Below, one piece after another: positions 1,521 through 8,317 of a DNA stretch of 11,709 bases. How positions within the stretch are numbered: position 1 is the stretch's first letter; every line of letters starts with the position of its first letter. Origin of the DNA: a virus; the UHGV virus genome UHGV-0058547; one strand, given 5' to 3'. Below the pieces are notes generated by a model that was not told the DNA's origin, searched no databases, and worked only from the letters and a program-made list of their open reading frames with translations. A program made the position numbers and the translations under genes.

Positions 1521-2615
1521 TTAATGCCAGCTACTGGCGTGCGAAATACGGTTGTAATCGAAAATAAAACCTTTCTCATAAATCCATAAGGGGATTTCCG
1601 CTGGCTTGGCTTCCAGCGTTCTTATTAGCGGAACAACGTTATTAGAGTCTGGTGAATCACAATAGAAATTAATATCGATACCGAACGAAAGCAATTCTCT
1701 TCTATGGCGATAAAAAGTGTTATGAGGTAACATTTCTTTCATGTTAGCCCCTTGTTTCCAAAGTAAATAAGTTGACTGTATTTTTCTTGGCAGTTTCGTT
1801 ATTTTTTCATCACTTAAAATAGCATTCTGATTCATTTCTATTCTCCCTACATATTCAGAGAATAATTGACGTGGTGTTTTCATATTCCAGTTAGCGCCAA
1901 GCGTTAAATTTAAATCAATAAGCTCAGTTGTTCTTAATGTTAATTCAATACGTAATTTATCTTTCGTCCAGTCCAGTAACCCGGCTCGTACAAACTCTTC
2001 GGCTATCTGGTGCCCTTTTTTACCAGAAACGTGTTCATCATATTTTGAATAAAATTTCAGACTCCATCGACGGGAGTTTTTACCTAAATAAACTGTACCG
2101 CCTTTCCCACATGCGCGACCATGGCGTGTTTTAGCTTTAAATTCGGCGGCATAAAGCCATGATCTGACATTTTCCAGCGTAGATAATGAATACATGTAAT
2201 TAATGTCAATACGTGAAATTTTATACTGACCTGCCATAACGGCTTTATAAGACGCTAAATCATGAGGAATATTCAATAAGGATAAAATCCTGGCATAGAC
2301 CGTCAACATGAGCCCTTGTATATCATCCGACCCAACAACAGAATGCCCCTGCAGAAACTTGGAAGGATTACCATCAATGTACAAATGTGTCGCTTTACCT
2401 TCGCCATTAGATCCTATCGATCGTACTTTCATCGTTGCTTCATGCGAACCGCGAACAGTCAGTCGCTTAACGGTTTCCCACTCAATTGCACCGTCAGCAT
2501 CAACGCTGACAACACTCCCCGCCGGAAGCGGTTTGTGTGTGCAAGGGAAAATCCCGGTAAGCCAATCGATCACGAATAAATCCTCAAAATTACAAAAATG
2601 ACGACTTACTAACAC
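1521..2615 (-). CDS. gII: Rolling-circle replication initiation protein pII
   Basis: 364 aa. GNPSKFLQGHSVVGSDD and SNNVVPLIRT align with M13 pII KASPAKVLQGHNVFGTTD and CNNVVPLVRF (recalled). The only in-frame start after the upstream stop is GTG at 2613-2615, with no obvious SD, so the start is uncertain. An in-frame internal start for a pX-like product is possible but not resolved. Confidence 0.85.
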   Translation of the reverse strand: MLVSRHFCNFEDLFVIDWLTGIFPCTHKPLPAGSVVSVDADGAIEWETVKRLTVRGSHEATMKVRSIGSNGEGKATHLYIDGNPSKFLQGHSVVGSDDIQGLMLTVYARILSLLNIPHDLASYKAVMAGQYKISRIDINYMYSLSTLENVRSWLYAAEFKAKTRHGRACGKGGTVYLGKNSRRWSLKFYSKYDEHVSGKKGHQIAEEFVRAGLLDWTKDKLRIELTLRTTELIDLNLTLGANWNMKTPRQLFSEYVGRIEMNQNAILSDEKITKLPRKIQSTYLLWKQGANMKEMLPHNTFYRHRRELLSFGIDINFYCDSPDSNNVVPLIRTLEAKPAEIPLWIYEKGFIFDYNRISHASSWH

Positions 2616-2742
2616 ATGAGTTCAGTAGTTCATTAGTGTTTTAACATTACACCAGTGAGCTAGTGAGTTCAAGAGGATTGGATGATGTGAGTTCATGAGC
2701 ATGTATACTCACTTCAAATATTGCATTGAACGAGCGTAAAAA
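2616..2742. promoter_or_regulatory. Divergent control region between gII and the RHH gene, with three copies of GTGAGTTCA
   Basis: Copies at 2617-2624 (TGAGTTCA, overlapping the gII start), 2663-2671 and 2687-2695, plus partial GTGAGC at 2655-2660. A TATACT -10-like hexamer sits at 2704-2709 ahead of the RHH ATG at 2743. No -35 element identified. Confidence 0.45.
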
Positions 2743-2925
2743 ATGGCAAAGCGCACGACTTATAACGTGACGGAAGAAAGAAAAATGAAACTAGAACGAC
2801 TGGCTATAAATGCCAGTGTAAAACTAGGAAAAACAATTACATGGACAGAGATTTTAGGTTATCTGATTGATAACTACTCTAAAGATGCAGCAGAAGATCT
2901 CATGTCTGCCAAACAAAAGGATTAA
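2743..2925 (+). CDS. Small ribbon-helix-helix (CopG/Arc/MetJ-like) DNA-binding protein; candidate phage repressor/regulator
   Basis: 60 aa. Basic N-terminus plus alternating strand KRTTYNVT, then helix EERKMKLERLAINASVKLG, loop and second helix ILGYLIDNY: the classic RHH pattern. Transcribed divergently from gII, as rstR is from rstA in CTXphi. Confidence 0.6.
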   Translation: MAKRTTYNVTEERKMKLERLAINASVKLGKTITWTEILGYLIDNYSKDAAEDLMSAKQKD

Positions 2926-2943
2926 GTACCACGAATGGTACAA

Positions 2944-2970
2944 ACGTGCAGTATTACCTACACTGCACGT
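2944..2970 (+). other. Stem-loop (8-bp stem ACGTGCAG / CTGCACGT, 11-nt loop) followed by TCTTTATT; possible attenuator/terminator or protein binding site
   Basis: Direct reading: 2944-2951 is the reverse complement of 2963-2970. Lies between the RHH stop (2925) and the next ATG (3014). Confidence 0.3.
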
Positions 2971-3013
2971 TCTTTATTGTGCGGATTTTGAACAGCAACA
3001 AAGGATCAAAAGG

Positions 3014-3436
3014 ATGAGTAGAAATAACGAAACAAGCGGCGTTGAACTGGTTGTTGTAGGCGTATTTGCTTTCTGTCTGGCAGTTGTTGCCTGGCTAATG
3101 AAAACTTTCGATGTTGAATGGCAAACAGCACTGGAAACTGCGCCTGGCCTGATAGTCTGGCTGCTTGTTGTCGGTGCGGGGATCTTTTTCGGGATCAAAA
3201 TGGAAACTGGCCTTATTCGCTGGGGTGCTCCACTGGCGATCGCCCTTCTGATTCCGGTATTCAAGCCAATTCTTAAGGAAGCTGCCGGAGTTCGTGAAAC
3301 GGGTGGGCTGGTTTTCGATGATATGGTTTCGTGGTATGGAACTGGCTGGGGAATGTCTCTGATGTTCTTCGGGATTCTTATCGTCGGATACGGTCTGCTT
3401 TATTGGTGGCACAGAAGGAATTCATATTATTGGTGA
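3014..3436 (+). CDS. 140-aa integral membrane protein with four predicted TM helices; function unknown
   Basis: ATG at 3014 preceded by AAGGA. Hydrophobic stretches ELVVVGVFAFCLAVVAWLM, GLIVWLLVVGAGIFFGI, APLAIALLIPVF and MSLMFFGILIVGYGLLYWW. The longer track ORF from 2867 lacks an RBS, and its extension is unlikely. Confidence 0.6.
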   Translation: MSRNNETSGVELVVVGVFAFCLAVVAWLMKTFDVEWQTALETAPGLIVWLLVVGAGIFFGIKMETGLIRWGAPLAIALLIPVFKPILKEAAGVRETGGLVFDDMVSWYGTGWGMSLMFFGILIVGYGLLYWWHRRNSYYW

Positions 3437-3502
3437 ATGTCAATCACTTGAATTTACAGGTTTTTTATAATTTCAGCCCGCGCTAGTTTGATATTGTGAA
3501 AG

Positions 3503-4084
3503 GTGAAGATGAGTATGCAACCGAATGAAGAAATGGACCTCAGGAAATTTTACGCAGAGGGAACAGCTGACTACTTAAAAACTAAAATCAAAAAAAGCGA
3601 ACGACTTTTAAAAATAAACCAATATCTATCATTTGCCCTCCCTGTCCTAGTTGGAGGATACGCATCGGTTGATCACAGCTCCAAATATTTTGATTTTTTA
3701 GTTTGGGGCACAGGGATATTATCAGTGATAGTCTTGCTTTCTAATTTATACACACTGGTCATGAAGACTGATGAAAATTTATCTCGATATCTGGAATCAT
3801 ACTCTTTCAATAAACTCCTAACTGATTTGTATGGCGAACTGTCGAGCATGTTTAAATCAAAGACAGGCAACCAGCAACCCGCTAACCATTTGTTTTCAGT
3901 GATAAAATCAAAAGATGACTTCAATGCCAAGGAAGATGAAAAATATGTTAGCAATAATGATAAGAAACGGATTATGTTCGACATTCTGGTAAAGAAAAAT
4001 AAAGAATGCGTACGTTGCAATAAAATACCGACTAAATTTAACAAGCGGAAAGGTTGCACAAATTGTGGCAATCTCGTGAAATAA
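3503..4084 (+). CDS. 2-TM membrane protein with C-terminal CxxC-x12-CxxC zinc ribbon (SLATT-like topology); function unknown
   Basis: N-terminal helix, then TM hairpin YLSFALPVLVGGYASV / LVWGTGILSVIVLLSNLYTLV, a charged helical region, and C-terminal ECVRCNKIPTKFNKRKGCTNCGN. Start ambiguous between GTG 3503, ATG 3509 and ATG 3515; GAAAGG precedes. Confidence 0.6.
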   Translation: MKMSMQPNEEMDLRKFYAEGTADYLKTKIKKSERLLKINQYLSFALPVLVGGYASVDHSSKYFDFLVWGTGILSVIVLLSNLYTLVMKTDENLSRYLESYSFNKLLTDLYGELSSMFKSKTGNQQPANHLFSVIKSKDDFNAKEDEKYVSNNDKKRIMFDILVKKNKECVRCNKIPTKFNKRKGCTNCGNLVK

Positions 4085-4095
4085 AGGAGAAACAA

Positions 4096-4287
4096 ATGAG
4101 TTATAAAGTAGATCAAGTCAAAGCTCTCTGGCTTCAATTGACTGATGCGGAGAAAAAAGAATTTACAACATATCTTTTTAATGGTGAAAAAAAATCCTTA
4201 CGTGAAGGATTCGAAAGTTTTAGTGTGAATAAAAGCACTACAATGCAATTTGGTGATGCAAACGTCTGCCCTGCTTGCGGAAAATAA
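4096..4287 (+). CDS. 63-aa small protein ending in CPACGK; function unknown
   Basis: AAAGGAGA 5 nt upstream of the ATG at 4096; begins 12 nt after the preceding stop (operon-like); followed by a strong terminator. Confidence 0.5.
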   Translation: MSYKVDQVKALWLQLTDAEKKEFTTYLFNGEKKSLREGFESFSVNKSTTMQFGDANVCPACGK

Positions 4288-4329
4288 AATCTAAAAGATT
4301 TTGGTTCGCACAATGACGTTATGCTAAAG

Positions 4330-4366
4330 AGGCCGCTGCGGGATTCGATTTTCGCAGCGGCCTTTT
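4330..4366 (+). terminator. Rho-independent terminator ending the RHH/membrane-protein operon
   Basis: 11-bp GC-rich stem AGGCCGCTGCG (4330-4340) pairing with CGCAGCGGCCT (4353-4363), 12-nt loop, then TTTT. Confidence 0.75.
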
Positions 4367-4396
4367 CAACATAACGAGTCCTACATTATGCGCACC
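4364..4396 (-). other. dif-like XerC/XerD recombination site (site 2), long central region
   Basis: Minus strand reads GGTGCGCATAA-TGTAGGACTCG-TTATGTTGAAA. E. coli dif is GGTGCGCATAA-TGTATA-TTATGTTAAAT. XerC arm 11/11, XerD arm 9/11, central region 11 nt. Confidence 0.65.
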
Positions 4397-4555
4397 AACA
4401 TAAACCAAGGGAGAATCCAGTGATTTGTGGACATCCTTGTTCTCGCAGAATATGGATGTGCTGAGTCTGGTTGGTTCGCCTAACGGTTGAAATGTCTTGC
4501 GGCCTTCACTGGGCTTGTTGAGTGTTCTGAATGTTCGCTTCAGGAACTGATTCAA

Positions 4556-5647
4556 ATGAAACGATTAATACTTGCTGCGACTGTAATAAGTGCAAGCCTG
4601 CTGCCATTTACCTGTTCGGCAAATGCCGACTCACTGGGTATCAATAAAGACTGCGATAACCATCCTGTCAGCCAGTACGGCATGGACACCATTACCGCAT
4701 TCAGTCAGTACAAGACGGAATCGAAAAAATTTAAAGATGCACTGACTGCGTTCTGCAATAAAGGCAAAACCATGGGCGACATGGGATTTGAAGCTGCCAA
4801 TGCTCACTCTCTTGCTGAAGCAAGGAAATGGACTGACTCCAGTCTTCCGGGGGGAAATGAAGAGCAGAAAAAATTTTCAGCAGCCATGGGGAGCCTGCTT
4901 TACTATGCAATGCTGAATGGATTCTCTGGTTTTGACTATCCCAGGTCGCCCGAGCAAAAAGAAAAATCAGTAAGCACATTTAATCCAAATGAGATATGTG
5001 ATGACATATCATCTAAAGCAGCCAAATATTCAACCTCGAATCTCCCCCCTCAAGTACAGATTTCATTAGCTGAGTGGAATCAAATCAAAGGCGAGTTTCA
5101 GATGGTGTGTTTTGCGGGAGTTATGGCGGGTAACAATCGCCAGTCGGTTGACTCAAAAATATTGGCTGGAATGAATGATATAGGCCCAGAAGTGAATTTG
5201 AGTGCTTATCGTTCTGGTTCGGAATACCCAAAGCCTCGCAGCAAAAACAACACGGAAAAAATTGATGCTACAGCAAGGGAGAAAGCGGCTGCAAAGAAGA
5301 AAGCAGATGCAGCCAGAAAACAAAGTGCCACCAACAAAACAAAGCAGGCTGACGATTATAAATCCAGGAGTGTTCGCCTTGACTCCCCCGATTTTCAACG
5401 CTTTCAGTCTTCACTCAGAAATGAATTTATGCGGCGAATTGGTGATGCGAAGCGTTTTTCAGGAAAAGAATGTTCAATAAATGTCTGGATGTCACAGAAA
5501 GGTGAGGTTCTGTCAGCCAGGAAGGAATCCGGAGATGAAGAGCTTTGCTCTGTGGTATTGCAGGCATCGAAGGGAATGAGGCTTAGCCCTATGAGTAATG
5601 AAGTTTACGGAGTGTTCCGTAATCCATCCCTCAACTTTAAATTCTAG
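4556..5647 (+). CDS. Secreted (signal-peptide) protein with K/A-rich helical linker and C-terminal TolA domain III-like domain
   Basis: Likely start MKRLILAATVISASLLPFTCSANA (signal peptide) at 4556, AGGA 10 nt upstream. C-terminus GKECSINVWMSQKGEVLSARKESGDEELCSVVLQASKGMRLSPMSNEVYGVFRNPSLNFKF aligns with the E. coli TolA C-terminus GKTCTLRIKLAPDGMLLDIKPEGGDPALCQAALAAAKLAKIPKPPSQAVYEVFKNAPLDFKP (recalled). Preceded by a Lys/Ala-rich stretch like TolA domain II. No TM anchor. Confidence 0.7.
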   Translation: MKRLILAATVISASLLPFTCSANADSLGINKDCDNHPVSQYGMDTITAFSQYKTESKKFKDALTAFCNKGKTMGDMGFEAANAHSLAEARKWTDSSLPGGNEEQKKFSAAMGSLLYYAMLNGFSGFDYPRSPEQKEKSVSTFNPNEICDDISSKAAKYSTSNLPPQVQISLAEWNQIKGEFQMVCFAGVMAGNNRQSVDSKILAGMNDIGPEVNLSAYRSGSEYPKPRSKNNTEKIDATAREKAAAKKKADAARKQSATNKTKQADDYKSRSVRLDSPDFQRFQSSLRNEFMRRIGDAKRFSGKECSINVWMSQKGEVLSARKESGDEELCSVVLQASKGMRLSPMSNEVYGVFRNPSLNFKF

Positions 5648-6102
5648 TTCATGCCGGGTAAGAGTCTTCACTTTTGTGGGGATTCTTATTTTCTTTTTGT
5701 TGTTATTGTCAGCTCAAGCCGCATGGCTCTCCTGCGGAGGGCTTAATATTGGGATAATATTGAAACATCAAAGACAGATGCAGATAAGTACAGAAAACCG
5801 ATAATAACAATTAAACAGTAAGTCTGTATAAGAGAATAACAGAATATATAAAAGAATTAACCCCGGTTGGCGATTTGGCGATGGTAACACAGATATTTAA
5901 ATCTGTAAAATGGTTATATTTATTTTTTTATTTACCCACCCTATCGGGTGATTCCGGCGCAGTCCTGACCCTGAGTACGCTCCCTGTAATGCACCATGCG
6001 CAACGCCAGAGTCAGTGGCAATGCAAAGCCATGACTAAGGCCAAAATCACCCCAAAACCGCATACAGGCAGTCAGCGGTCACGATGTAAGCAAAATACGA
6101 GA

Positions 6103-6122
6103 TACTGTATAAATAAACAGCC
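6103..6122. promoter_or_regulatory. LexA (SOS) box-like palindrome TACTGTATAAATAAACAGCC
   Basis: CTGT-N8-ACAG with an AT-rich spacer; 16/20 matches to the E. coli consensus TACTGTATATATATACAGTA. Contains a TATAAA -10-like hexamer. Lies in an 0.8-kb noncoding stretch about 340 bp upstream of the HNH_3-like gene. Confidence 0.5.
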
Positions 6123-6460
6123 CTGCAATTGTCAGGCATATGCGCCCTCTCACACTGACACCCCCCCTGTTCCGCCCTGTTTATTGCATCTGTACAGCCA
6201 TCTGAGCGCATCCGGCTGCAACCTGACGCATTTGCATGTGCCGTATTAATGATGCCACACAGAGCGCCTGACGGTTTGTACCATCATCTGTCACAATTCA
6301 TTGTTTGAAAAATTTTACATTTTATTTTTTGAAGTGATTACATAAATATAATCCATCTCTCCGGCATGAGTGCCTGACTGAAGGTGAATCGAAAAAGAAG
6401 GACCCGCCCCGATTCTTTTTACTCCCTTCCCTTTCAGTTAAATCACGCAGGAGAAATATC

Positions 6461-7408
6461 ATGCCCCGCTACAAAAAAGGTATCCGTAATAATTGCTTTC
6501 ATCAAAATTATACTCATGACGTATTGTTCCCCGGCGCAACATTCAGAACCCGACATAATGGAGAATGCGCCATTCTTGGCCGCTCTGATGATAAATCAAG
6601 GCGAGGCTATTATGTCGTGGAATTCAAAGACAGTGGCATCATCAAGGAAGCCTATGGCTCGCATATTAAAACTGGTTCTGTATCAGACGAAGCTTTTCCA
6701 TCATCGGAGGAAGAACGACGAAAGTTACTGATGACACCAAAATATTACGGCGTCGGATATATTGGTAATGGATGTCATTCAACTATTGAAAACACCCGAA
6801 CACACCAAAGAACGAGAGCATTCATACTCTGGCATAACATGCTGGCAAGGTGCTACATGACAACCAAAGGGAAGCAGTATTTTAAAGGCTACAAAGGTGT
6901 CACTGTATGCGAGCGATGGCATAACTTTCAGAACTTCTGCAATGACCTTCCAAAATTGCATGGCTACAACAAATGGAAGGATAATCCGGGAGAGTATGAG
7001 CTCGATAAGGATTACTCACATCGCCGGATTTATTCTGCTGACACGGTGGCATTTATCAGCACAGAAGAAAATGCCAGGGAAGCTGGATTACGACGCGTTG
7101 CCATGAAGATTCCTTCCGGGCATTATCATGAAATAAATAAAATTCGAGATGAGATATTAATGGAGGCTGAAGATGAATTAAAAAACAATCAAATTCATTA
7201 TGAAGTTGTTCTTGACGGGAATATGAAAGTAATCCTGTGTGAAACTCCTTATGGCACAGTGTTGTTCTGGCCTCTCACAAAAAAGATTCAGCGTAATTGC
7301 TACATGATTGATGGTGATGTACAGGTTTATGTTTATTACCTGCGCTGGCTCATACTTCAGTGGGAAAACAGAAATCCCGACATAAACTGTGTTGCTACAA
7401 CCTGTTGA
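6461..7408 (+). CDS. 315-aa protein with central degenerate HNH_3-like module; putative DNA-binding protein or inactive homing-endonuclease relative
   Basis: AGGAG 7 nt upstream of the ATG. Central motif W-HNM-LARCY ... YFKGYKGVTVCERWHNFQNFCND ... YELDKDYSHRRIYSADTVAFISTEENAR matches the phage HNH_3-family pattern W..M..RC ... YGGRGI.VC..W..F..F ... IDRID.DGNY.P.NCRW.T..EQ..N (recalled), but the canonical catalytic residues are not evident. Confidence 0.6.
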   Translation: MPRYKKGIRNNCFHQNYTHDVLFPGATFRTRHNGECAILGRSDDKSRRGYYVVEFKDSGIIKEAYGSHIKTGSVSDEAFPSSEEERRKLLMTPKYYGVGYIGNGCHSTIENTRTHQRTRAFILWHNMLARCYMTTKGKQYFKGYKGVTVCERWHNFQNFCNDLPKLHGYNKWKDNPGEYELDKDYSHRRIYSADTVAFISTEENAREAGLRRVAMKIPSGHYHEINKIRDEILMEAEDELKNNQIHYEVVLDGNMKVILCETPYGTVLFWPLTKKIQRNCYMIDGDVQVYVYYLRWLILQWENRNPDINCVATTC

Positions 7409-7589
7409 TGATGCTATAAAATAGTCATAAAATAACCGGCATTTCACAATGCTATCTATTAATAAGAAGAAACGAACATTCAGGATGTATCTGTAATTCC
7501 GCTGTTGCAGTGATTTTCTGTGCCAGAAAACAAGTGACAACGTCTGGCAGCTCATTGCAGAAGGCTAAATGCCAGCACTTCGTGCAGTC

Positions 7590-7619
7590 ATTTAACATGT
7601 TCAACACATTATGCGCACC
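7590..7619 (-). other. dif-like XerC/XerD recombination site (site 1)
   Basis: Minus strand reads GGTGCGCATAA-TGTGTTGA-ACATGTTAAAT. XerC arm 11/11 to E. coli dif; XerD arm 9/11, with the last 9 nt ATGTTAAAT identical; 8-nt central region. Confidence 0.7.
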
Positions 7620-7657: not shown

Positions 7658-7891
7658 TCATTGGTCACAGACCGTAATCCACTGGCCCAGGACGTCTTTC
7701 AGGCAATGTTGGCATAAATCCAGTTTTAAGCGATTACTGTCACCAAAAATTGAACCGTATCCAGCTAAGTGATTAACAGACAGAAACTCATTGAACTCAA
7801 TGTCATCTACCACCGTCTTCGCATGGCGACCACAGCGATCGCAGGTCTTCGCACATAACATTACAGTATCGCTGGATGTGAAAAATTGCAT
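7658..7891 (-). CDS. 77-aa Cys-rich protein (CxxxCxxC ... CxxC); putative zinc-binding protein
   Basis: AGGAG 5 nt upstream of the ATG at 7891; six cysteines including C-x2-C pairs at residues 17/20 and 60/63. Same orientation as the phage core, downstream of gIV. Confidence 0.55.
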   Translation of the reverse strand: MQFFTSSDTVMLCAKTCDRCGRHAKTVVDDIEFNEFLSVNHLAGYGSIFGDSNRLKLDLCQHCLKDVLGQWITVCDQ

Positions 7892-8008: not shown

Positions 8009-8317
8009 TCATATAAACCAATAGACCGTCCTTACGCCATTCTGGTTATCAATAACATAGCCGCATTGTTTCCTTAAAAATTCTTCTGCTAAATCAATGG
8101 CTTTTACAGAAATCTCATAAGAAGGAAGTAAAGTGTATCCTTTCCCTTCACTGGCAGCTGCTTTGATCGCATCCAGAGTATTATCAATCAGTAACAGAGC
8201 AAGTGATGCTTCATTTACCTGAGCCGAAGAACTTCTGGCTGCAAGTGTCATTGTTTTTGCTTCTTCCGCTGTAATCGTTCGTTCTGCCAGAGCAGATAAA
8301 ATCCCATAAGAATCCAT
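8009..8317 (-). CDS. 102-aa hypothetical protein
   Basis: ORF in phage orientation immediately downstream of the gIV-end hairpin; weak GGGG RBS; no recognisable motif. Confidence 0.4.
   Translation of the reverse strand: MDSYGILSALAERTITAEEAKTMTLAARSSSAQVNEASLALLLIDNTLDAIKAAASEGKGYTLLPSYEISVKAIDLAEEFLRKQCGYVIDNQNGVRTVYWFI

Follow-up and report, generated by a model that had tools for sequence, protein, structure and literature searches.

The 11,709-nucleotide (nt) virus genome UHGV-0058547, analysed here at its full length and called the window, is a circularly permuted filamentous-phage genome of the UPphi/CUS-1/YpfPhi type, that is, an inovirus prophage that integrates at dif, and the region at 2743-4287 is the regulatory and accessory arm of this prophage. 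A first-pass annotation, made from the sequence alone, had read the four genes of this arm, here g1 to g4, as a single candidate module for exclusion or abortive infection. Comparison with related prophages instead assigns g1 and g2 to the phage backbone and g3-g4 to a separate exchangeable cassette that occupies a hypervariable cargo slot. We put the chances at about even that g3-g4 is a conflict module with a membrane effector, and our judgement is split between a defence outcome (exclusion or abortive infection) and an addiction outcome. The four open reading frames (ORFs) lie where the first-pass annotation had placed them, all on the plus strand:

2743-2925, plus strand: g1, 60 amino acids (aa)
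3014-3436, plus strand: g2, 140 aa, with four hydrophobic segments by hydropathy (residues 10-28, 43-61, 65-83 and 111-129)
3509-4084, plus strand: g3, 191 aa, with an alternative GTG start at 3503
4096-4287, plus strand: g4, 63 aa, ending in CPACGK
3435-4300, unstranded: cargo slot, which starts inside the g2 stop codon and ends 2 nt before the first Xer site

The boundaries of the slot come from blastn comparison with the sister prophages L002-L004 (L numbers denote the loci compared in this analysis). The left flank at 2501-3434, which holds the end of the replication gene together with g1 and g2, is kept at 97-99% identity and the right flank at 4301-4440, the phage attachment site attP, at 93-96%, whereas nothing in these prophages aligned with 3435-4300. 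The four genes thus fail as one module. The whole region occurs in one of 5426 complete E. coli genomes, that of strain C10, and at least nine alternative, unrelated gene sets fill the slot in near-identical E. coli prophages:

ECs_2282 zinc-binding protein with a second ORF
STM4504/CBY_0614 protein (AbiJ_NTD4 plus DUF7014 family)
PD-(D/E)XK nuclease with DUF6953
Fic/Doc protein
five further sets of hypothetical proteins

Profile matches among the slot alleles include AbiJ_NTD4 (E 8.6e-27) plus DUF7014, with PADLOC PDC-S32; REase_DpnII-MboI (E 6.9e-59), with PADLOC Aga_Helical-REase (E 1.3e-34) and PDC-S35; Fic (E 4.3e-14), with PADLOC PDC-S23; and a zinc ribbon matching PADLOC PDC-S64. As judged from such matches, several slot alleles are conflict-type proteins. 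In its fixed position between conserved flanks and its content of unrelated gene sets, some of them defence-like, the slot behaves like the hypervariable regions of Vibrio inoviruses, which harbour anti-phage systems and are still found in degraded prophages (PMC12715192).

The assignment of the element to its lineage draws on its closest relatives and on its morphogenesis genes. The best matches of the window are tandem dif/hipA-linked inovirus prophages in E. coli (~99% identity), and its secretin is IKe-like. Because these features agree with the published description of the UPphi viruses, whose morphogenesis genes are IKe-like and whose genes II and V resemble those of YpfPhi/CUS-1, and which stand as tandem copies at dif and carry a few reverse-oriented dif-adjacent ORFs that vary among strains (PMC7307601), we identify the element as a phage of this type, whose integration at dif would proceed via the host XerCD recombinase. 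Among sequenced phages, megablast of the whole window found as its sole similarity ~190 bp of the IKe/PEar gene IV, at ~80% identity. None of g1-g4 is an inovirus core gene, as had been noted on first inspection. In YpfPhi, a regulator in the rstR position is accompanied by two attL-adjacent ORFs without known function, which are swapped for unrelated ORFs in CUS-1 (PMC4266046).

On the backbone side of the slot, g1 has the position and surroundings of a phage repressor, and the following features bear on it:

1521-2615, minus strand: replication gene (gene II), divergent from g1
2616-2742 (127 nt), unstranded: intergenic control region between g1 and the replication gene
L016 2056-2502 and L028 6789-7235: HTH_3 repressor allele, 148 aa, with its own intergenic region

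Three of the four exact copies of TGAGTTCA in the whole window fall inside 79 nt of the intergenic region, at 2617, 2664 and 2688, and a 10-nt inverted repeat is also present. In L016 and L028 the HTH_3 protein stands in place of g1 and has been swapped together with the intergenic region, such that the homology of the HTH-allele prophages to the window starts only at ~2915; this exchange has the classic pattern of heteroimmune repressor alleles. Homologues of g1, which itself matches phrog_2503 (E 3.6e-34), adjoin replication genes in L008, L011 and L013 as well. With its divergence from the replication gene, operator-like repeats, and allele exchange along with the intergenic region, g1 fits an RstR position and is probably the immunity and replication repressor of the phage. 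The existence of two repressor alleles, a 60-aa protein and a 148-aa HTH_3 protein, on otherwise homologous backbones recalls the heteroimmune rstR classes of CTXphi.

The first-pass annotation had called g1 a ribbon-helix-helix (RHH) regulator. The single sequence has no match in Pfam or in sequences of the Protein Data Bank (PDB). A profile built from four homologues gives an end-to-end but weak alignment (E 0.16) with the RHH domain of ParG (1p94, residues 35-74), and one g1 homologue matches Pfam ParG at E 0.02. Because these matches are weak, an RHH fold for g1 is plausible and not established. A promoter scan called none upstream of g1, g2 or g3; a perfect TATAAT at 3466-3471 has no usable -35 element.

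The second backbone gene, g2, encodes the four-transmembrane (TM) protein that had been described, matches phrog_4174 (E 1.5e-85) and has no Pfam match. It is kept at 93-99% in sister prophages with most cargos; some prophages (L015, L025) lack it, as do all remnant loci, including L008, L011 and L013. By this distribution g2 is a lineage-conserved protein outside the cargo pair. Membership of g2 in the cargo was considered and rejected, since the gene is kept beside other cargos and missing beside g3-g4 in the three remnant loci just named.

The unit that remains in the slot is the pair g3-g4. A small ORF lies directly 3' of every g3 homologue examined, in Enterobacterales and at six distant loci (in Sedimentisphaerales, Methylomarinum, Desulfobacterales, Ignavibacteriaceae, a Rhodococcus MOBF plasmid and an IMG/VR viral contig), and the distant partner ORFs overlap the g3 homologue or start within ~30 nt of it. 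Five of the six distant partners share a layout in which an N-terminal helix with [WF]..L[ST]..E+.E is combined with a C-terminus of the form G(P).....C.CCG[KR], and partners that keep the motif measure 59-71 aa. The sixth, from Ignavibacteriaceae (L020), has 117 aa and is without cysteines, and its homology is uncertain. Because a small partner ORF follows the g3 homologue in such distant bacteria, the pair is an old two-gene unit, and g4 represents an unannotated partner gene, conserved across phyla, for the protein family TIGR04402 to which g3 belongs. Measured against related copies, phage-less remnants included, the ratio of nonsynonymous to synonymous substitution (dN/dS) stands at 0.05 and 0.014 in g3 and at 0.20 and 0.09 in g4; because these values are low, both genes are under purifying selection and are maintained even without the phage.

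The contexts of the pair in Enterobacterales show how readily it parts from the backbone genes. The 8.7-kb contig L028 has, behind the HTH_3 repressor allele, a g3 of 99% identity, and the g4 position after it is taken by an ORF of 63 aa. A g1-like gene precedes the pair, with g2 absent, in L008, Edwardsiella (L011) and Providencia (L013). In Pectobacterium (L005-L007) the pair stands alone, ~270 nt from the chromosomal dif and without any phage genes, followed by the same inverted Xer sites and hairpin as in the window and with ordinary chromosomal genes on both sides. The pair is Xer-linked in all Enterobacterales contexts examined. A search with the Enterobacterales alignment found nothing in GTDB species representatives or IMG/VR; the Enterobacterales module is therefore a strain-level accessory, and the window itself is no IMG/VR contig.

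Several individual loci deserve mention. L008 (6166-6547) and L013 (9723 to ~10100) carry two tandem g4 paralogues, both ending in C..CGK, beside a Providencia-type g3 of ~50% identity. On the Rhodococcus erythropolis plasmid NZ_CP091860.1 (L027), whose gene table in PLSDB is incomplete, an unannotated 71-aa ORF of the g4 family at 5518-5733 overlaps the end of a gene for a 'mobilome CxxCx(11)CxxC protein', and the locus is flanked on one side by genes for a restriction endonuclease and a protein kinase, on the other by a pair made up of a helicase-related and a DUF1156 gene. The IMG/VR viral contig (L030) also carries a cytosine methyltransferase gene.

The assignment of g3 to a family is certified by its match to NCBIfam TIGR04402, at 143 bits (cut-off 70; E 1.1e-41) over profile positions 2-179 of 180; Pfam PF27874 is precomputed on all g3 homologues. 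TIGR04402 is named 'mobilome CxxCx(11)CxxC protein', and RefSeq labels the identical gene so in E. coli C10. As the first-pass annotation had it, g3 has two TM segments, a strong one at residues 63-81 and a weaker one at ~36-54 by hydropathy, and a C-terminal CVRC-x12-CTNC (C167, C170, C183 and C186); the spacer between the cysteine pairs has 12 residues in this Enterobacterales branch (11 in some close relatives) and usually 11 in distant members. An exhaustive profile search gave 269 clusters at E <= 1e-3, and nearly all of the best 150 of the 269 are ~190 aa long and match over their full length. Besides the four cysteines, the family conserves a GTA motif (AEGTAD here) in the helix before TM1; TM1 itself has a conserved Pro and Gly, and a D-x-K motif and a basic stretch ahead of the ribbon are likewise kept. 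The mobile contexts of TIGR04402 comprise inovirus prophages (the window, L001, L009/L010 and L028), dif-linked remnants (L005-L008, L011 and L013), the Rhodococcus plasmid and the viral contig. By tblastn, g3 has no match among INPHARED phages, and a search of the paper library found no mention of TIGR04402 or of 'mobilome CxxCx'.

The AlphaFold2 model of g3 (pLDDT 81, pTM 0.66) shows a helix at 5-52 that continues into TM1, a six-residue loop at 53-58, TM2 at 59-87, then three cytoplasmic helices and a terminal beta-hairpin ribbon. Segments rich in K and R lie beside both TM segments on the cytoplasmic side, and because of this charge distribution both termini are predicted to be cytoplasmic, in an N-in/C-in two-TM hairpin.

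The small partner g4 ends in CPACGK, as had been described. It combines N-terminal helices bearing W..L...EKKEF with a C-terminal TMQFG....CPACGK knuckle, and searches of Pfam, NCBIfam, PADLOC and PHROG assign it to no family. It has close homologues in Klebsiella, Enterobacter, Serratia, Pectobacterium, Yersinia, Cronobacter, Edwardsiella and Salmonella. Its AlphaFold2 model is poor (pLDDT 60), with three short helices and a terminal hairpin. We predict that g4 is a cytoplasmic partner of g3. The operon-like spacing originally proposed for all four genes holds for g3-g4, where the 11-nt gap contains AAGGAG, a Shine-Dalgarno sequence, before g4, and not for g1-g2 or g2-g3; because those gaps measure 88 and 72 nt, only g3-g4 look translationally coupled. 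The two genes overlap in L008 and L027.

The right border of the slot is formed by two inverted Xer sites and the hairpin that joins them:

4303-4329, plus strand: dif-like Xer site 1, GGTTCGCACAA-TGACG-TTATGCTAAAG, from an arm scan
4327-4366, unstranded: GC-rich 17-bp hairpin followed by UUUU, the stem joining both inverted Xer sites
4364-4396, minus strand: dif-like Xer site 2, in inverted orientation; 4386-4396 is a perfect XerC arm (GGTGCGCATAA), which a centre of 11 nt separates from TTATGTTGAAA at 4364-4374; from an arm scan

The first-pass annotation had placed a strong terminator at the end of the four genes, and a stable hairpin is indeed there: the folded 96-nt stretch has a predicted energy of -41.9 kcal/mol (z -7.46). 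A simple consensus terminator scan did not call it. Because it lies between two inverted XerC/XerD-type sites, the hairpin reads primarily as part of an attP of the CTXphi type; YpfPhi has been reviewed as carrying inverted XerC/XerD sites of this type (PMC4266046). Its interpretation as a plain terminator was rejected, given the flanking inverted Xer sites and a predicted fold in which the outer stem pairs the two XerD-type arms. With the UUUU run after it, the hairpin may also terminate transcription of the cargo. Xer site 1 is kept in all sister prophages and also lies 3' of g3-g4 in Pectobacterium, Edwardsiella and L008.

Part of this border recurs outside prophages. The 72-bp piece at 4302-4373, which comprises Xer site 1 and the hairpin, is found at ~478 places on E. 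coli plasmids at ~93% identity, and on the one IncF plasmid inspected (L029 2501-2571) it lies directly 3' of an STM4504/CBY_0614 gene, one of the alternative phage-slot cargos. Because this IncF copy adjoins a slot-type cargo gene, it suggests that cargo and the adjacent Xer half-site have moved to plasmids as a unit.

What might such a pair do? For g3-g4, and for them alone, the exclusion or abortive-infection role that had been proposed for the whole region is reasonable by association, given the defence-like and toxin-like slot-mates and the sub-threshold SLATT signals described below; it does not extend to g1 and g2. In a self-contained conflict module of this kind, which we consider the most likely reading, g3 would sit in the inner membrane as an N-in/C-in two-TM hairpin with a cytoplasmic helical domain and zinc ribbon, where it would oligomerise and permeabilise or depolarise the membrane. 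Its cytoplasmic partner g4, obligate and translationally coupled and with one CPxCG knuckle at its C-terminus, would keep g3 silent as an antidote or couple it to a trigger. The lysogen would then exclude or abort competing phages, or it would become addicted to the element. Such a module would be functionally comparable to lambda cI-rexAB or to the SLATT effectors of CBASS and DRT10.

The resemblance to SLATT effectors had been suggested from topology, and hydropathy and the AlphaFold2 model support the layout, while no SLATT profile in Pfam or NCBIfam reaches threshold. The SLATT-type arrangement of an N-terminal cytoplasmic helix followed by a two-TM hairpin, in a protein of ~190 aa, is present in g3. 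On the TM hairpin, SLATT_1 scores 13.3 bits (cut-off 41; E 0.061) and DUF4231 13.7 bits (cut-off 24.7; E 0.09). Among 66 members of the g3 family there are 13 member-family matches, all sub-threshold: DUF4231 in eight (best value 8e-4), SLATT_4 in three (4e-3) and SLATT_6 in two (0.015). A Foldseek search of the g3 model against BFVD returned SLATT-annotated entries as nine of the top 50 matches (ranks 1, 2, 6, 10, 13, 14, 21, 26 and 47), although all the matches are weak, with a best E of 0.048 and TM-scores of 0.25-0.48. Foldseek against the PDB gave a best E of 0.83, and the g3-family profile found nothing meaningful among PDB sequences. These signals are recurrent and consistent but weak: the architecture of g3 is SLATT-like, and membership of the clan is not established.

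Several considerations weigh against assigning g3-g4 to conflict. Every SLATT-type match is below threshold and falls on hydrophobic helices, which are prone to spurious similarity, and no cyclase, SLOG, TIR, reverse transcriptase or other sensor adjoins g3 in any context examined, unlike in characterised SLATT systems. PADLOC-DB v2 models gave zero matches to g1-g4 at E <= 1. Association with slot-mates is indirect evidence, and of the alternative cargos five are unknowns in their own right. The role given to g4 is a guess because its model is of low confidence. To our knowledge, functional evidence is lacking altogether, both for TIGR04402/PF27874 and for g4. Finally, the module is dispensable and may be costly, because truncated and fused copies of g3 exist: in Klebsiella (L009 68-460) a truncated 130-aa g3 occurs in one of three tandem prophage copies, and in Yersinia enterocolitica P0032 a deletion has fused g3 residues ~115-143 to the C-terminal half of g4 in a 67-aa protein.

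A more specific version of the conflict reading, which we offer tentatively, is that g3-g4 represents an uncharacterised, self-sufficient two-component conflict system, made up of a SLATT-like membrane effector with a zinc ribbon and a partner of ~65 aa with a terminal CxxCG knuckle, present in at least four to five bacterial phyla (269 protein clusters) and acting without a nucleotide second messenger, which in Enterobacterales would travel as a Xer-flanked cassette between filamentous phages, chromosomes and possibly plasmids.

Alternatively, the two genes may form an addiction pair similar to a toxin-antitoxin system, in which g3 would be a membrane toxin and g4 its labile antidote and the benefit would lie mainly in stabilising the prophage or dif-linked element. 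We regard this as rather unlikely, although several observations suit it: the genes are small, adjacent, co-oriented and tightly coupled, they are under purifying selection in minimal dif-flanked remnants without phage genes, another prophage has a Fic/Doc toxin in the slot, and some strains keep g4 sequence while g3 is inactivated. One distant partner also matches TIGR02574, a 'putative addiction module component', weakly and below the cut-off (E 0.0026), but this match occurs in one of seven partners. Neither protein is homologous to a known toxin or antitoxin family, and an order with the large gene first and the small gene second is unusual, though possible, for type II systems. An addiction pair is also compatible with abortive infection.

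A role in lysogenic conversion, in which g3-g4 would have no part in conflict and would instead alter the physiology or virulence of the host, e.g. by signalling envelope stress or by using the cysteines to handle metals, is improbable in our view. The accessory region of CTXphi carries toxin genes, which provides a precedent, and the cysteine-rich termini of both proteins could bind metals. CUS-1 and YpfPhi give modest fitness gains in vivo via unknown genes (PMC4266046). The slot-mates, however, are conflict-type genes, and because the pair is found in several phyla, among free-living and sediment bacteria, and next to restriction and helicase genes on a Rhodococcus plasmid, a role specific to animal hosts is disfavoured.

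The two remaining possibilities are both highly improbable. That g3-g4 serves the phage life cycle, in assembly or exit at the membrane or in Xer recombination at attP, would fit a cassette that directly adjoins attP and is Xer-linked in all its Enterobacterales contexts, and IMEX elements are known to encode a Xer activation factor, XafT (PMC12715192), but sister phages with 99% identical core genes do without the cassette, distant homologues occur in non-inovirus contexts (a plasmid, and the viral contig with its cytosine methyltransferase gene), and the module persists without phage genes. That g1 is an RHH regulator of g2, g3 and g4 as joint effectors in a four-gene operon is suggested by their common orientation, by the lack of a called terminator between them and by the g1-like genes directly 5' of g3-g4 in L008, L011 and L013, an adjacency explained by the location of the slot, which in several inovirus backbones comes directly after the repressor gene; yet g1 and g2 occur with at least nine other cargos, a HTH repressor replaces g1 beside g3-g4 (L028), and g3-g4 occur without g2 in those three loci and without both g1 and g2 in Pectobacterium and the distant loci L017-L020, L027 and L030. 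A conflict module confined to g3-g4 is the reading that we carry into the comparisons below.

Among known systems, lambda cI-rexA-rexB offers a parallel in gene arrangement: these prophage genes lie 3' of the repressor and encode a polytopic membrane protein and a cytoplasmic partner that are thought to depolarise the membrane on superinfection. RexB has four TM segments and RexA ~280 aa. The g3-g4 pair has no relation to them in sequence or fold and differs in topology and sizes, and its expression from the repressor promoter can only be supposed. The pdif modules of Acinetobacter plasmids are small gene sets, often for toxin-antitoxin or resistance functions, that are bracketed by XerC/XerD sites. 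The Pectobacterium g3-g4, in a module of ~1.2 kb between dif and attP-type sites, resembles them, but it may be a mere remnant of prophage deletion, and Xer-dependent movement is only a candidate mechanism.

SLATT effectors share with g3 a length of ~190 aa, an N-terminal cytoplasmic helix, a two-TM hairpin, a tightly coupled partner gene, and carriage on prophages and mobile elements, and they are predicted to be pore-forming suicide effectors (bioRxiv 10.64898/2026.04.29.721553; PMC11381338). What sets g3 apart is a further cytoplasmic helical domain, the zinc ribbon, and a 63-aa partner in place of a cyclase, SLOG, TIR or reverse transcriptase. The hypervariable regions of Vibrio inoviruses (pHVRs) are likewise fixed hotspots in Xer-integrating inoviruses that hold anti-phage systems, toxins and unknown genes, undergo horizontal exchange and are kept in degraded prophages (PMC12715192), but those are linked to lysogeny modules of the xafT type, whereas the slot described here has an Enterobacterales host, an inverted attP pair of the CTX type and another cargo family. 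Closest of all in lineage, position and orientation, 3' of a repressor-type gene and adjoining a Xer site, are h3-h5 of UPphi, orf1/orf1a of CUS-1 and YPO2271/YPO2272 of YpfPhi. These dif-side ORFs differ among near-identical phages and are without known function (PMC7307601, PMC4266046). TIGR04402 and its 63-aa partner are absent from the ORFs of those papers, and the slot boundaries, the conflict-type alleles and the conserved pair are new here.

The remainder of the window holds several features outside the arm:

minus strand of the window, all: major coat, gene V-like, gene II, secretin, Zot/pI, pVI and pIII genes
4559-5647, plus strand: TolA-III ORF, with a Sec signal peptide MKRLILAATVISASLLPFTCSANA and a C-terminal TolA domain III (PF06519, 43 bits, cut-off 25)
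7658-7891 and 8009-8317, minus strand: two small ORFs of 77 and 102 aa, between attP and gene IV

Between the attP and the h1 gene of the phage stands a ~3.2-kb segment at 4397-7619, which is bracketed by two co-oriented dif-like sites; the perfect XerC arm GGTGCGCATAA occurs on the minus strand at 4386-4396 and again at 7609-7619. In E. coli C10 this DNA follows the second prophage copy, beside a hipA remnant. The segment looks like a separate Xer-linked insert that is not part of the 8.7-kb phage (compare L028). The TolA-III ORF lies within this segment. TolA domain III is the co-receptor for the g3p of filamentous phages and for colicins, and for this reason a secreted TolA-III decoy beside an inovirus prophage could act in superinfection exclusion or protect against colicins. 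Its neighbour, an ORF of 315 aa (6461-7408), matches no family. Beyond the segment, the 77-aa ORF has CxxC pairs, neither it nor the 102-aa ORF has a significant family match, and by position both apparently lie in the region of the lineage-specific 'h1/h2' of UPphi.

Our findings fit into a longer discussion of what filamentous phages carry beside dif. Already published are the phage lineage with its variable dif-proximal ORFs, the inverted Xer sites, and the idea that hypervariable regions of inoviruses are defence hotspots. To these we add the exact slot boundaries in phages of the UPphi/CUS-1 type with a catalogue of conflict-type alleles, a conserved and hitherto unannotated partner gene of TIGR04402 proteins across phyla, SLATT-like evidence for g3, and the persistence of the pair as mini-modules flanked by Xer sites. 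The function of the end ORFs of CUS-1, of the plague-bacillus phage YpfPhi and of UPphi has been an explicit open question since 2002-2007. In the light of the present comparison, the dif-proximal ORFs form an exchangeable cargo slot, several alleles of which appear to be of conflict type, and one allele can be isolated as a compact two-gene system that is conserved across phyla. Such cargo, the comparison further suggests, may travel among phages, chromosomes and plasmids in mini-modules linked to Xer sites.

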